Source: Trichodesmium sp. MO_231.B1
GTDB lineage: Bacteria; Cyanobacteriota; Cyanobacteriia; Cyanobacteriales; Microcoleaceae
NCBI GenBank assembly: GCA_030064815.1
Contig: JASJEJ010000100.1
Span: forward strand, 1-15,296
Length of the DNA stretch: 15,296 nt
Reading direction: 5' to 3'
Shown: one piece after another, positions 9,057-13,122 of the stretch
How positions within the stretch are numbered: the first letter of the stretch is position 1
Layout of the letters: every line of letters begins with the position of its first letter
Translations under genes and position numbers: made by a program
Notes under the pieces: model-generated
What the model was told of the DNA's origin: nothing
Database searches by the model: none
The model's input: only the letters and a program-made list of their open reading frames with translations

Positions 9057-9503
9057 ATGGGTCTTTTTGAGCAAGGAACAGCAACAATACAAGCTACTGA
9101 TATTAAATTAGAACCTGCCGAAGCTTTTGCAGCTATTGCTTTAATTGCTGTAGCTGCTGATGGTATTATTACTGAAAGTGAAAAACAAGGTATTAGTAAT
9201 ATTTTCTCTCGCATGGAACTATTTTCTAATTATTCAGAAGAACGTAAGAGAGAAATGTTAGATCGTCTCTTAGGTATGATTAAGAATAAAGAGATTAAGC
9301 CTTTGTTTGATGCTGCTGTTGCTAAACTTCCTAAAGAGTTAAGAGAAACAGTTTTTGCTGTTAGTACAGACTTAGTTTTAGTAGATGGAGACCTTGCTGA
9401 AGAGGAAGAACAACTTTTGAATGAATTGTATAATGCTTTGGAAATTTCCGAAGCAGTAGCTACTAAGATTATTGATGTAATGATGATTAAAAATAAGGGT
9501 TAA
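9057..9503 (+). CDS. TerB-like (tellurite-resistance TerB family) small acidic protein
   Basis: Two copies of the TerB-type motif: AFAAIALIAVAADGIITESEKQGISNIF and ETVFAVSTDLVLVDGDLAEEEEQLLNELYNAL. I prefer the ATG at 9057, which has GAGG 9 nt upstream, over the TTG at 9006 offered by the ORF track. Confidence 0.55.
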   Translation: MGLFEQGTATIQATDIKLEPAEAFAAIALIAVAADGIITESEKQGISNIFSRMELFSNYSEERKREMLDRLLGMIKNKEIKPLFDAAVAKLPKELRETVFAVSTDLVLVDGDLAEEEEQLLNELYNALEISEAVATKIIDVMMIKNKG

Positions 9504-9845: not shown

Positions 9846-10262
9846 ATGTCTTTTTACTATGCAAGAATAGTTCATTTTCAGGATACTGATGCTGCTGGTG
9901 TGGTTTATTTTGCTAATATTTTAGCAATTTGCCATGAAGCTTATGAAGCGTGTTTAGCAGAATTTGGTATTAATTTGAAGGTTTTTTTTACTAATCACGA
10001 AATAGCTATTCCAATTATTCATGCTGATATTGATTTTCGTCGTCCGATGTTTTGTGGGGATGAGTTAACTATTGAGTTAATGCCTAAAAGTTGGGGAGAT
10101 GATGAGTTTGAAATTTCTTATCAAGTATTTTTAAAGGAGGTGGGAGAAAAGTGGGTGGCGAGAGCTAATACTAAGCACGTTTGTATTCATCCTCGAAGTA
10201 GGAGTAGGCAAAAATTATCTGATGAAATGAGGCGATGGTTATTAAGTTTTGAAAGTTCGTAG
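9846..10262 (+). CDS. 1,4-dihydroxy-2-naphthoyl-CoA thioesterase (hotdog-fold, 4HBT/YbgC-like; phylloquinone pathway)
   Basis: 138-aa ORF. The N-terminal YYARIVHFQDTDAAGVVYFANIL matches the hotdog-fold pattern of Synechocystis Slr0204-type DHNA-CoA thioesterases as I recall them. Size is typical. A menE-like gene lies 3.2 kb downstream. Confidence 0.7.
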   Translation: MSFYYARIVHFQDTDAAGVVYFANILAICHEAYEACLAEFGINLKVFFTNHEIAIPIIHADIDFRRPMFCGDELTIELMPKSWGDDEFEISYQVFLKEVGEKWVARANTKHVCIHPRSRSRQKLSDEMRRWLLSFESS

Positions 10263-10395
10263 TTTGGCGAATATCAAGGAAAAGAAAATGATATATTATG
10301 TTGAAAAATTTTTTTGATTTAATAAATCTATTAATGATTTTATTTATAGAACCCATTTGCTATCTTTTACATTTATTTTTCTTTCTACAACATTC

Positions 10396-10461
10396 GCGAT
10401 ATAGCTGCCGCTAGGCTCTACCTTTCATGTCGCGCAGTGAAACGGAATGGAGTTCTATCGC
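10396..10461. repeat. Second GC-rich structured island: outer stem GCGATA(10396-10401)/TATCGC(10456-10461), inner hairpin TTTCA-N10-TGAAA (10423-10442); contains the 11-mer TTTCATGTCGC shared with 350-433
   Basis: Direct reading. Confidence 0.3.
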
Positions 10462-10480
10462 TAAGTCACTATAATTTTTT

Positions 10481-10605
10481 AGTTGAATAAAAAGTCATGC
10501 ATGTAGGGGAGAAAACTCATATAGGTGTGATTTTATCACAAAAATTGTCAGGATGCAACTGAAAATCCTTTGACGCGCTGAAAAATTTCAGGAGCTTTAT
10601 AAAAT
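10481..10605. repeat. Copy A of a ~125-bp duplicated non-coding element (identical 20-nt 5' end, variable segment, ~90% identical 45-nt core with two hairpins)
   Basis: Aligned by eye with 10771-10895. Shared 5' end AGTTGAATAAAAAGTCATGC. Core: ATCACAAAAATTGT(C/G)AGGATGCA(A/G)C(T/C)GAAAATCCTTTGACGCGC. Core hairpins: CACAA-aaa-TTGTG and AGGAT-N10-ATCCT. Confidence 0.8.
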
Positions 10606-10770
10606 GAAGGTTTTATTAGTTTTCCACTGAGGGGTGATAGATGGAAAGATTCGATGATGGGAAAAACAAACATATTATATTTACGAGAGCTTTACAAGAT
10701 GAAGATATTTCTGGTGTTGCTCCTAGGGAAAATTCCTAAATATTTCCATTTCCTATTACCAAAGAAATTG

Positions 10771-10895
10771 AGTTGAATAAAAAGTCATGCGCATAGGCGA
10801 GCTAACCCAGATAAGTTTTATCCTATCACAAAAATTGTGAGGATGCAGCCGAAAATCCTTTGACGCGCGAAATTTTTCAGGAGCTTCACAGAATG
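10771..10895. repeat. Copy B of the ~125-bp duplicated element, exactly 290 bp downstream of copy A, same orientation
   Basis: See copy A. Confidence 0.8.
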
Positions 10896-11345
10896 CAAAA
10901 ATTAGATACCAAATGTTTTCTGTAGTTGGTTGAATTGCAGTCTTTGACAAGAAATACCTAATTTTTCCGATAATTGTAGTTGCAGGTCTGTTTTTTCTAT
11001 CTTTATTCAGAACATTCAGGGAACTGAAACTGGAGCTATAGATAAATATACTTGACTTAACATTGATGGTAGGATTTGCTTGAGGAGAAATATTAAAGCG
11101 GATAGCAAAAAGACTATTAACGTAAATAAAGTAAAATTGAACAATTTGAATAAATAAATTCATAACAGATCAGAGTTTTATATCGGTCAAGTTAAGTTAT
11201 ATCGATCTAAATAATTTGCATTGACAGGTTAGATAAAGTTTTTTAAGTTTTCAGAGTTCATAATGGGAGAGTTATAGGTTTATTGATTATTCAAAAGTTG
11301 TTGATAATCTTCTCTTTGTCGAATATCATCTAATAGTGATTCTGG

Positions 11346-11708
11346 TTATAGGAGTTCGTCGTAGCAGAATTCTAATTTAATAACTTTTATTTCTGAAGCC
11401 CCTATGACCAGAACACAAATCCTAATTTTACCTGTTTGCCATTCAGAATTACCTAATTTTAAAATCTTACATTCCATACCTTCAGGAGGAAAAATTAATT
11501 CTATATTTTTGAGATTAAACTCCACAGATATGTCTATAGTACTATTGCTCAAACAATCAAACATACTATGATCGCTACTATAGTTGGGCTCAAAAGAATA
11601 TATAAGTTTTTCTTTTGCCAACTCCTTAAATCTTTCAACAGTAAAAGTATCCTTCCCAATCATCAAAATATCAGTATCACATTCTAAAGGTTGAAATGTA
11701 TTAGTCAT
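11346..11708 (-). CDS. Hypothetical 120-aa protein, no recognisable domain (orphan)
   Basis: Clean ORF with AGGA 4 nt upstream of the ATG and balanced composition, unlike the low-complexity artefact ORFs nearby. No motif I can place. Confidence 0.4.
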   Translation of the reverse strand: MTNTFQPLECDTDILMIGKDTFTVERFKELAKEKLIYSFEPNYSSDHSMFDCLSNSTIDISVEFNLKNIELIFPPEGMECKILKLGNSEWQTGKIRICVLVIGASEIKVIKLEFCYDELL

Positions 11709-12150: not shown

Positions 12151-13122
12151 ATGTCAAACAATACTTATGCCATAATTGGTAGTGGCGCACTAGGAGGTTT
12201 TTACGGTGCAAAACTCCAGAAAGCAGAATTAGAAGTTCATTTCTTACTACACAGTGATTATCAGCACGTTCTGGAAAATGGCTTAATTATAAAATCAAAA
12301 GATGGCGATTTTAATCTCCCTCAAGTTAACGCCTATAACAATACTAATAAAATGCCAAAATGTGATGTAATTATCATAGGATTAAAAACAATACAAAATC
12401 ATTTATTGGCAAAATTACTCCCACCCTTATTAAAATAAAATACTGTTGTATTACTGTTACAAAATGGCTTAGGTGCAGAACCAGAAATTGCCAAAATTGT
12501 TGGGGAGGATAGAGTAATTGGAGGAGTATGTAATCTTGCTTCTAATAAAGTAAGTTTTGGTTATATTCATCATATAGATTATGGTTTAATTAGAATCGGA
12601 AGATATGCCATAAATTATCAAATTGCTGAAATTACTAATAAAATGTGTGAGATTACTCAGGATTTTGAAATGGCTGGAGTTCCGGTTAATCTCACTGAAG
12701 ATTTACTGCTAGAAAGATGGAAAAAATTAGTTTGGAATATTCCTTATAACGGCTTGTCAGTAATTTTAGATGCTCGAACTGACGAAATTATGGGAGATGC
12801 TAATACGAGAAATTTAGTAACAGAAATAATGCAGGAAGTTTTAGAGGGGGCAAAAAGTTGTCGGCGTCAAATTCCAGATAGTTATATTCAAGAAATGTTA
12901 GACTTTACTGACAAATTACAACCTTATTTAACTAGCATGAAAATTGACTATGAGCGACGACGACCCTTAGAAATAGAAGGGATTATTGGCAACCCTTTAC
13001 AAATGGCGAGTGAAACTGGTATGAAGTTATCAAAAATTGGGATGTTGTATCAACAATTAAAATTTTTAGATGCTAGAAATAGACAGAATTTTTCAAGTCA
13101 AAACTCAAAACTCAAAAGTTAA
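12151..13122 (+). pseudogene. panE: 2-dehydropantoate 2-reductase (ketopantoate reductase, PanE/ApbA family) interrupted by a single in-frame TAA at 12436-12438; otherwise intact over ~323 codons
   Basis: The ORF-track entries 12151..12438 and 12643..13122 are in the same frame, and 12439-12642 has no stop. N-term MSNNTYAIIGSGALGGFYGAKL is the Rossmann GxGxxG. The stretch around the stop, LLPPLLK*NTVVLLLQNGLG, aligns to PanE L..L.....P(I/V)LL.NG.G. The C-terminal domain carries the family-typical LLERWKKLVWNIPYNGLSVI. Confidence 0.75.

Follow-up and report, generated by a model that had tools for sequence, protein, structure and literature searches.

What kind of element is a pair of similar, co-oriented repeats lying in a stretch of DNA that seems to hold no genes? 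The question is raised by positions 10263-11345 of a 15,296-nt stretch of contig JASJEJ010000100.1 from the cyanobacterium Trichodesmium sp. MO_231.B1; we refer to this whole stretch as ‘the window’. The interval is flanked by a 4HBT_2 thioesterase gene (9846-10262, + strand) and by a KGK-domain gene (11346-11708, - strand). The G+C content of the window is ~32%, and its gene content is cyanobacterial, menE and menC neighbours included; a 47.8-kb metagenome scaffold (ENA ERZ23487464) contains it. An earlier note on this DNA had described the pair as a duplicated, structured element of ~125 bp, and had suggested small RNAs, leaders or a remnant of a MITE (miniature inverted-repeat transposable element). 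The best explanation overall, to which we assign a probability of roughly 0.7, is a modular MITE with built-in bidirectional transcription signals. The two parts of this explanation are not equally firm. That the repeats form a module array inside an IS5-type MITE is highly probable; the accompanying model of sense and antisense transcription, drawn from predicted signals, is tentative and may well prove wrong.

The repeat pair itself is a real feature, far beyond chance. A repeat search of the window returned co-oriented direct repeats at 10478-10578 and 10768-10868 (83% identity, spacing 290), and a further direct pair at 10580-10606 and 10869-10895 (81% identity). Chance would give 0.01 occurrences of the 20-mer AGTTGAATAAAAAGTCATGC, or of the 18-mer GAAAATCCTTTGACGCGC, in the window; there are exactly two of each. 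The outline given in the earlier note holds up well. The two direct copies 290 bp apart, and the identical 20-mer at their start, are recovered by the repeat search and the k-mer counts. Pairwise alignment of the copies likewise recovers the ~35-nt segment of conserved length and poor identity, the well-conserved core that follows it, and the ending TTCAGGAGCT...ATG (TTCAGGAGCTT..ATG), past which the similarity fades.

The two copies are consecutive modules of one element, which has no transposase, is bounded by terminal inverted repeats (TIRs), and belongs to a dispersed family. One genome per species was scanned with the 18-mer GAAAATCCTTTGACGCGC, and 81 loci were returned. About 60 of these belong to Okeania spp., Dapis spp., a Trichodesmium sp. 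metagenome-assembled genome (MAG), and unclassified Microcoleaceae or cyanobacterial MAGs; the remaining matches are single, chance ones in unrelated bacteria. A search for copies in relatives had been proposed before, and it finds the repeat at these ~60 cyanobacterial loci, many with two to four 18-mer matches spaced 275-290 bp apart. Homology among the aligned copies spans ~285 bp. This, and not ~125 bp, is the unit of the family, and the second copy in the window is a shortened one. An nhmmer profile of the unit found ~200 modules in 65 arrays, each of 1-12 modules, in at least 15 genomes. As far as the literature searched shows, the family is undescribed, and it is of the modular MITE kind: literature searches yielded nothing on the module-array family, and BLAST of the repeat against plasmids gave no match. 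The repeats of T. erythraeum reported by Pfreundt et al. are a different thing, with units of 736-973 bp.

The profile also found arrays of partial units (model positions ~83-250). At three loci (L047, 2904-4170; L050, 1193-2666; L041, 6392-7218), ~170-bp partial units are repeated six to eight times. The module contains the similar boxes GGAAAATCC and GGGAAAAATTCC, and recombination between these apparently gave rise to arrays of this sort.

The arrays are flanked by inverted copies of TATAGAAnnCATTTGGTATCTTTG. Full pairs enclose 672 bp at locus L010, 650 bp at L051 and 580 bp in the window, and the general layout is TIR, left arm, a variable number of ~285-bp modules, right arm, TIR. At many loci a common leader, TATAGAACCCATTTGGTATCTTTGACATTGATTTTCCTTTCTACAACATTCGCGATCGC..., precedes the first modules, and the left arm is conserved there (...TTGACATTGATTTTCCTTTCTACAACATTCGCGATCGC...). 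The tail that follows the last modules ends, again at many loci, in ...GGCAAAGATACCAAATAGCTTCTATA, the inverted complement of the leader start. In the window, the element occupies 10345-10924 between 24-bp inverted repeats (10345-10368 and 10901-10924) that pair at 16 of 20 core positions. The interval is therefore not plain ‘gene-free’ DNA, as had been supposed; a single mobile element fills this part of it, with a second repeat nested inside. The suggestion of a MITE was essentially right. ‘Remnant’ was not, since the element is complete and TIR-bounded, with its right arm largely deleted. Its features are as follows (open reading frame, ORF; Shine-Dalgarno, SD; transcription start site, TSS).

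10345-10368, + strand: left TIR, TATAGAACCCATTTGCTATCTTTT, with 2 mismatches to the family TIR TATAGAACCCATTTGGTATCTTTG.
10369-10400, + strand: left arm (‘leader’), ACATTTATTTTTCTTTCTACAACATTCGCGAT, ending in half a HIP1 site, GCGATCGC.
10401-10461, + strand: nested ~61-bp repeat, ATAGCTGCCGC...GGAGTTCTATCGC, splitting the HIP1 site of the left arm (GCGAT...ATCGC).
10470-10475, + strand: rightward -10-like box TATAAT, a consensus match 6-7 nt before the module start; predicted TSS ~10481-10482.
10479-10768, + strand: module 1, a complete ~285-bp unit (nhmmer, unit-model positions 1-274, 205 bits; alignment with 83 full-length units).
10482-10499, + strand: block 1, near-invariant GTTGAATAAAAAGTCATG; second copy at 10772-10789.
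10530-10558, - strand: predicted leftward promoter of module 1, with -35 TTGCAT (10558 to 10553), a 17-nt spacer and extended -10 TGATAAAAT (10538 to 10530); predicted minus-strand TSS near 10523, from the consensus match.
10590-10594 and 10604-10630, + strand: SD-like AGGAG and ORF-A (MKVLLVFH, then stop), in a region, CAGGAGCTTCAnAnAATG, that is conserved.
10641-10776, + strand: 3' half of module 1, with overlapping small ORFs and a second GAGCTT..ATGAA box.
10641-10739, + strand: ORF-B (MERFDDGK...), from the ORF list.
10699-10776, + strand: ORF-C (MKIFLVLLLGKIPKY...), from the ORF list.
10769-10900, + strand: module 2, of the truncated terminal ‘MQKL’ type (alignment, profile match); SD at 10879-10883, ATG at 10893.
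10820-10848, - strand: predicted leftward signals of module 2, extended -10 TGATAGGAT (10828 to 10820) and CTGCAT (10848 to 10843); predicted TSS near 10813.
10901-10924, - strand: right TIR, reverse complement TACAGAAAACATTTGGTATCTAAT, pairing with the left TIR.
10925-11345: right flank, outside the element; non-coding, and conserved up to the convergent KGK-domain gene.

Here the right arm lacks most of its usual ~120 bp, and module 2 passes from its ATG directly into the right TIR. Complete right arms are present at L010, L051 and L055; L012 shares the shortened junction of the window. Terminal modules elsewhere likewise begin ATGCAAAAGTTAG... ahead of the right arm. On the + strand, the element contains only ORFs of 40 aa or fewer, none of them a transposase, and an overlapping 135-aa ORF on the minus strand has no Pfam match. 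The ORF between the copies that the earlier note had given as 33 codons (10641-10742) exists, with 32 codons and an end at 10739. The nested ~61-bp repeat is missing from many other left arms and found in some; its paired end motifs occur in 11 of the 150 fetched loci. It is another small dispersed family, and appears to target GCGATCGC.

A metagenome scan for the TIR returned 68 loci. At several of these, the same 24-bp TIRs bound elements of 912-937 bp that encode a 282-aa protein with the domains DUF4096 (E=7e-27) and DDE_Tnp_1 (E=4e-12). By this hallmark, the 0.9-kb element is an autonomous insertion sequence (IS) with a predicted transposase of the IS4/IS5 family. Plain MITEs of 167-208 bp are bounded by the same TIRs, and a frequent metagenome class that shares them contains runs of the heptamer GGAGTCA. 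Because the module-bearing element has the TIRs of this IS, no transposase, and nothing else that is IS-like, we regard it as a non-autonomous, MITE-like derivative with foreign cargo. Derivation of the modules or the right arm from the interior of the IS was considered and rejected: only the TIRs match, and the core alignment score falls within that of shuffles. Among the fetched genome loci, no transposase match was found that would place the IS in the same genomes as the MITE.

Two further occurrences of the TIR were observed. At L069 (~7800-7835), two elements with the same ends stand next to each other: the right TIR of one, which carries modules, adjoins the left TIR of the other, and a single TATA serves both (..GCTTCTATAGAACCC..); this junction would fit insertion into a TATA target. 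In the window, a solo IS5-type TIR, TATAGAACCCATTTGG, lies on the minus strand at 3594-3634 (outer end 3632), in the intergenic space before the vault-protein gene described below; on either side of it, GAAGGAA-like and GGAGTCA heptamers form short tandem runs (3485-3560 and 3729-3755).

The module-bearing insertions stand in many different, unrelated surroundings. The one behind the thioesterase gene, for its part, is common to at least four species, and is old. The element lies directly behind this gene in a Trichodesmium sp. MAG (L055, three modules) and in Okeania sp. SIO3I5 (L074, four modules), and the thioesterase, TerB and DUF815 proteins that flank it there are 84-92% identical to those of the window. 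At L055 and in Okeania sp. SIO2F4 (L012), the element is followed by the same right flank, KGK gene and panE gene as in the window; the flank (10925-11345) is 83% identical in nucleotide sequence to that of L012, and 79% to that of L055. The right flank differs at L074, and the contig of L012 ends inside the element, short of the thioesterase gene. Since the same insertion is present in four species, it predates them. The number of modules differs at this orthologous site; the invariant blocks are kept, and the variable segments have diverged. No ORF is common to the right flanks of the window, L012 and L055, and their indels are not multiples of three; the ~420-bp flank may itself contain something conserved and non-coding, for instance a 3' untranslated region (UTR), a terminator or a small RNA.

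What do the modules carry? Their conservation is at the level of sequence, and uneven. An alignment of 108 modules, made non-redundant at <88% pairwise identity, has 19 invariant columns; many others reach at least 90% identity, and these stand beside columns of <50%. Block 1, GTTGAATAAAAAGTCATG, is invariant or at least 90% identical throughout, and is kept in all seven of the modules that were found via the TIR instead of the 18-mer, as a check on ascertainment. Per module there are two co-oriented copies of the box GGAGCTTCAnAnnATGAAAAT, ~88 nt from each other. The best-conserved feature of the module is a predicted promoter on the opposite strand, of the near-consensus extended -10 kind. 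The minus-strand motif TGnTAnnnT stands at a fixed position in 104 of the 108 modules; along TGATAnnAT, the counts are T 105, G 108, A 108, T 108, A 108, T 88, a variable position, A 88 and T 108. The positions that matter in an extended -10 element are the TG and T1, A2 and T6. The conservation profile matches these requirements: the T and G, like T1, A2 and T6, show little or no variation, and the three middle positions vary. The hexamer TTGCAT lies 17 nt upstream, and both motif and spacing are kept in divergent modules.

Rightward signals are distributed differently. A TAnnnT box 5-9 nt before GTTGAA is present in 30 of 55 first modules vs 2 of 99 internal ones; it reads TATACT at many loci, and TATAAT in the window. 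For the + strand, a sigma-70 -35/-10 pair within the module was considered and dropped: TAGGCG lies 19 nt from TATnAT in typical copies, and the scan scores deletion copies only. With the modules oriented on the + strand, the nearest downstream gene is convergent in 38 of 50 arrays (38 vs 12), a count that is indicative only, given the incomplete independence of the loci. Among upstream neighbours, neither orientation prevails (27/25). Mostly convergent downstream genes argue against a role for the modules as the leader or 5' UTR of a co-oriented gene, and the bias suggests selection against rightward read-out ahead of genes. The earlier proposal of duplicated leaders or promoters of decayed small genes captured the promoter-like and SD-ATG signals present in every module. 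Against its other half, the duplication is the normal array structure of a dispersed, ~200-module family and no local event, and the mostly convergent downstream neighbours speak against leaders.

We propose the following course of events. An IS of the IS4/IS5 family would mobilize the element in trans. Arrays of 1-12 modules, arrays of partial units, and differing copy numbers at the orthologous site point to unequal recombination or slippage between modules as the way in which module number changes. The array would be read rightwards as a single RNA from the promoter in the left arm, and every module would fire a short leftward antisense RNA overlapping the 5' end of the sense RNA or a module junction. 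In such a leftward RNA, the first ~24 nt would be variable and the next ~18 nt invariant and U-rich. Through this bidirectional transcription the element might act on itself and possibly on flanking genes; candidate outcomes are self-regulation similar to that of IS10, processing of the sense RNA, interference with neighbours, or nothing.

Several points weigh against the explanation as a whole, or against parts of it. That GAAAATCCTTTGACGCGC is invariant in the main data set is an ascertainment artefact, this sequence having served as the search pattern: it is often not conserved in the modules found via the TIR, which keep GTTGAATAAAAA[AG]TCATG, ATGCAA, TATCA and CAGGAGCTTCAnAnAATG, so that the apparent invariance of the ‘TTGACGCGC’ core is largely produced by the search. 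The element ends all read TATA (TGTA at the right end in the window), which is compatible with a TA or TATA target-site duplication and inseparable from the TIR sequence itself. No orthologous site without the element was recovered; at the single orthologous site examined, all four species carry it. The compared loci are phylogenetically non-independent, and the counts overstate independent events. As for transcription, both promoters are consensus matches, and a generic promoter scan of the window reports neither site; the leftward one was missed because TTGCAT matches TTGACA at only 3 of 6 positions. A terminator search found none for either transcript. Finally, the TATnATA core is palindromic, and a rightward -10 may be possible at the same place.

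A bolder reading makes the modules functional. They would be self-contained pairs of sense and antisense RNA genes, selected by the host at old, inherited sites and spread by the IS5-type MITE. Each would use its strong leftward promoter to make a short RNA with a variable 5' part of fixed length and an invariant, U-rich 3' part (CAUGACUUUUUAUUCAAC), opposed to a rightward RNA with translated mini-ORFs. The result might be a copy-number-tunable system of regulatory RNAs or mini-peptides, or an addiction-like cassette. We consider this unlikely.

At the other extreme, the element might be a silent selfish repeat, a long-period satellite within a MITE, whose conserved blocks are binding sites for transposase or host proteins, or the product of gene conversion. 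Fixed spacing of invariant blocks, with free drift between them, would fit contacts between protein and DNA, and the duplicated box GGAGCTTCAnAnnATGAAAAT could be read in the same way; partial-unit arrays (83-250) mean that units recombine readily, and the ORFs decay freely. This reading is nevertheless somewhat less likely still. The conservation of TGnTAnnnT fits a promoter position by position, and the rightward -10 box is confined to first modules. Co-directional downstream genes are disfavoured (38:12), which suggests that transcription out of the element has consequences. Moreover, transposase sites beyond the TIR are not expected, because the internal sequence shares nothing with the IS.

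A third possibility turns on the small ORFs. The modules might be cassettes similar to type I toxin-antitoxin systems, spread by the MITE, with ORF-C (MKIFLVLLLGKIP..) or ORF-A as the toxin and the leftward RNA of the next module as the antitoxin. The strong, conserved antisense promoter predicted here suits this idea, and so does the tandem intergenic arrangement, which is that of Ldr/Rdl and Ibs/Sib of E. coli. In the window, the stop codon of ORF-C lies inside block 1 of the next module, within reach of its predicted antisense RNA. The ORFs are short and hydrophobic, have SD-like boxes of their own, and show a modest synonymous excess: the synonymous fraction is 0.34 vs 0.15 expected for ORF-A (family peptide MK[MIV][LF]V[VI]F[HY], 8 codons) and 0.36 vs 0.24 expected for ORF-C (MKIFLVLLLGKIPEY..), all other frames being at expectation. 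We nonetheless judge the possibility improbable. ORF-A has just eight codons; its stop codon is not always kept, and the peptide is lost in divergent modules. ORF-C is recognizable in ~51 of 83 modules and intact in only about half; its length (4-25 aa) and C-terminus vary, and its hydrophobic run of ~9 residues is too short for a membrane helix. Single-module elements exist, and these have no downstream antisense promoter to cover ORF-C.

The wider coding picture is similar. In other modules the ORFs are often broken or frame-shifted, and ORF-B reads into ORF-C in 9 of 83. The GG of the SD is replaced (TG, GA, GT) in what the alignment view, uncounted, suggests is a sizeable minority of modules. 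When the fused module ORF was compared with 5.8 billion proteins, the only matches were six tiny hypothetical proteins, and no longer protein or transposase with a module N-terminus was among them. A 17-codon ORF in the 5' domain (MRIGEQ...) was also rejected, as it has in-frame stops in many copies and a synonymous fraction at expectation. The coding signal of the small ORFs is weak; translation of the mini-ORFs is possible, and a conserved protein product unlikely.

Weaker again is the idea, favoured by the earlier note, that each copy is a structured RNA: a cis-regulatory element such as a riboswitch, attenuator or thermosensor, or the leader of a small gene that has since decayed. An SD and an ATG are indeed conserved after a ~120-nt conserved region, and the sequence would allow AUCCU two alternative partners, the upstream AGGAU and the SD, AGGAG. 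The AGGAU/AUCCU helix is paired in 93% of cells, with four compensatory A-U and six G-U cells. The two hairpins named earlier, CACAA/TTGTG and AGGAT/ATCCT, can be drawn. As conserved structures they lack support. Taken together, 87.8% of their cells pair, 2 of 10 pairs have double changes, and the covariation score is 0.083 vs 0.071 in shuffles; in 45 of 108 modules, the middle pair of CACAA/TTGTG is broken. RNAalifold returned 0 conserved pairs on the 108 modules. A looser run gave just a few local hairpins (the full unit, the 5' domain and the minus strand were tried), and mutual information was dominated by gaps, without Watson-Crick covariation. A conserved fold, and with it the hairpin-rich core, is not supported. 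The Rfam scan that the note had suggested gave 0 matches to the window at gathering score and chance-level ones only (E 0.6-3.7) at E<=10, and a search of the window for tRNA and tmRNA found none. A long-range helix between AAAAAGUCAUGCG and CGCGCGAUUUUUU can be drawn by eye; both of its sides are invariant or fixed by the way the copies were retrieved, and the side in block 3, the 3' arm region, is not conserved in independently found modules. In addition, the units lie within a TIR-bounded mobile element, in arrays of up to 12, with downstream genes mostly convergent. We therefore think a structured RNA quite improbable.

The variable 35-nt segment invites other interpretations. Its length is fixed in 110 of 122 distinct segments, and it is no stabler than shuffles (mean folding energy -3.6 vs -3.5 kcal/mol). 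A guide-like role was rejected, no targets being found in ~1 Mb of related DNA. A CRISPR array was rejected too: the units are ~285 bp long and homologous throughout, and the variable segments have no matches in that ~1 Mb. A search for phage association gave two chance matches only.

Lastly, a simple, recent local duplication of a unique intergenic segment, for which the presence of only two copies in the 15-kb window might speak and which the note had tied to a lack of copies elsewhere, has practically no chance of being right: ~200 modules lie at 60 loci of at least 15 genomes, the same insertion occurs in three other species, and the window copies, at only 83% identity, are too far apart for the duplication to be recent.

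The preferred explanation, a modular MITE with transcription signals in each unit, has parallels among known systems. The closest is the BrickBuilt MITE of Porphyromonas gingivalis, which has the structure leader-(23-nt repeat)n-tail and measured bidirectional promoter activity (Klein et al. 2015, PMC4596501). Like the present family, it is non-autonomous, intergenic and multi-copy, has small inverted-repeat ends, and is restricted to a species or lineage. It differs in its repeat (23 nt vs ~285 nt here, where each unit has promoter-like and SD-ATG signals), in its promoter activity, measured there and predicted here, and in its host phylum and IS partner. In the BOX elements of Streptococcus pneumoniae, with the order boxA-(boxB)n-boxC, boxB is ~45 nt, and the elements are thought to act via RNA secondary structure. 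These, too, are dispersed, intergenic, variable tandem modules between two terminal modules, and are able to influence the expression of neighbouring genes, a predicted possibility here; the present family differs in showing no detectable conserved structure and in having an identified autonomous IS with which it shares its TIRs. Ordinary IS5-family MITEs share the TIR of an IS with DUF4096 and DDE_Tnp_1, the lack of a transposase, the many copies and the A/T-rich (TA/TATA) ends. The present element differs from them in that its interior is unrelated to the IS, it is longer (0.6 to >3 kb), it holds an expandable array, and its blocks are strongly and unevenly conserved.

The predicted transcription resembles that of IS10, in which the overlap of RNA-IN and RNA-OUT covers the start codon of the transposase and controls its translation. 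In both, an inward promoter at the end faces an outward promoter ~40 nt further in, and the 5' ends overlap; here, the predicted sense start is at ~column 3 and the predicted antisense start at ~column 45 of the module alignment. Unlike IS10, the element lacks a transposase, and its predicted arrangement recurs in every module, with the overlap falling upstream of the SD-ATG. Tandem arrays of small RNA genes are familiar as well. NsiR1 of Nostoc, and Ldr/Rdl and Ibs/Sib of E. coli, are single chromosomal loci in which units of a few hundred bp stand head to tail, each with its own promoter (predicted here), and give small RNAs or tiny hydrophobic ORFs. In our family, by contrast, the array is cargo, found at dozens of sites within a TIR-bounded mobile element; Rfam gives no match, either to NsiR1 or to another family, and conservation of the peptide is poor.

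The rest of the window deserves brief mention. The gene at 3783-6380 encodes an 865-aa homologue of the eukaryotic major vault protein (MVP), with Vault repeats and an MVP shoulder (E down to 2e-68). Its G+C content is 41-47%, vs 29-35% in the surrounding DNA, which suggests a foreign origin or strong compositional constraint. Adjoining it, at 1109-3484, is the gene for a 791-aa Ser/Thr protein kinase fused to WD40 repeats. Downstream are a DUF815 AAA ATPase (7553-8860) and a TerB-like protein (9006-9503), in the same positions as at L055 and L074. At 12151-13122, the gene for ketopantoate reductase (panE/ApbA) is divided between two ORFs, an N-terminal one (12151-12438) and a C-terminal one (12643-13122); the frame apparently shifts in an A-rich run near 12430, which indicates a pseudogene or an assembly error.

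Cyanobacteria of the Okeania, Dapis and Trichodesmium type have genomes with unusually large non-coding fractions. In T. erythraeum, tandem repeats and non-coding transcripts dominate the transcriptome (PMC4143802). The family described here is a so far undescribed component of this non-coding DNA: an expandable array of ~285-bp units, probably mobilized by an IS5-type element, with a near-consensus predicted promoter in every unit. Even if it is merely selfish, knowledge of it will aid annotation, because the element explains ‘gene-free’ stretches and spurious small ORFs, and array length offers a means of typing strains. Should the promoters prove active, sense and antisense transcription would arise beside ordinary genes from dozens of arrays per genome, the genes concerned in the window being the thioesterase gene of the phylloquinone pathway and the KGK-domain gene, and an insertion kept in four species would point to domestication.

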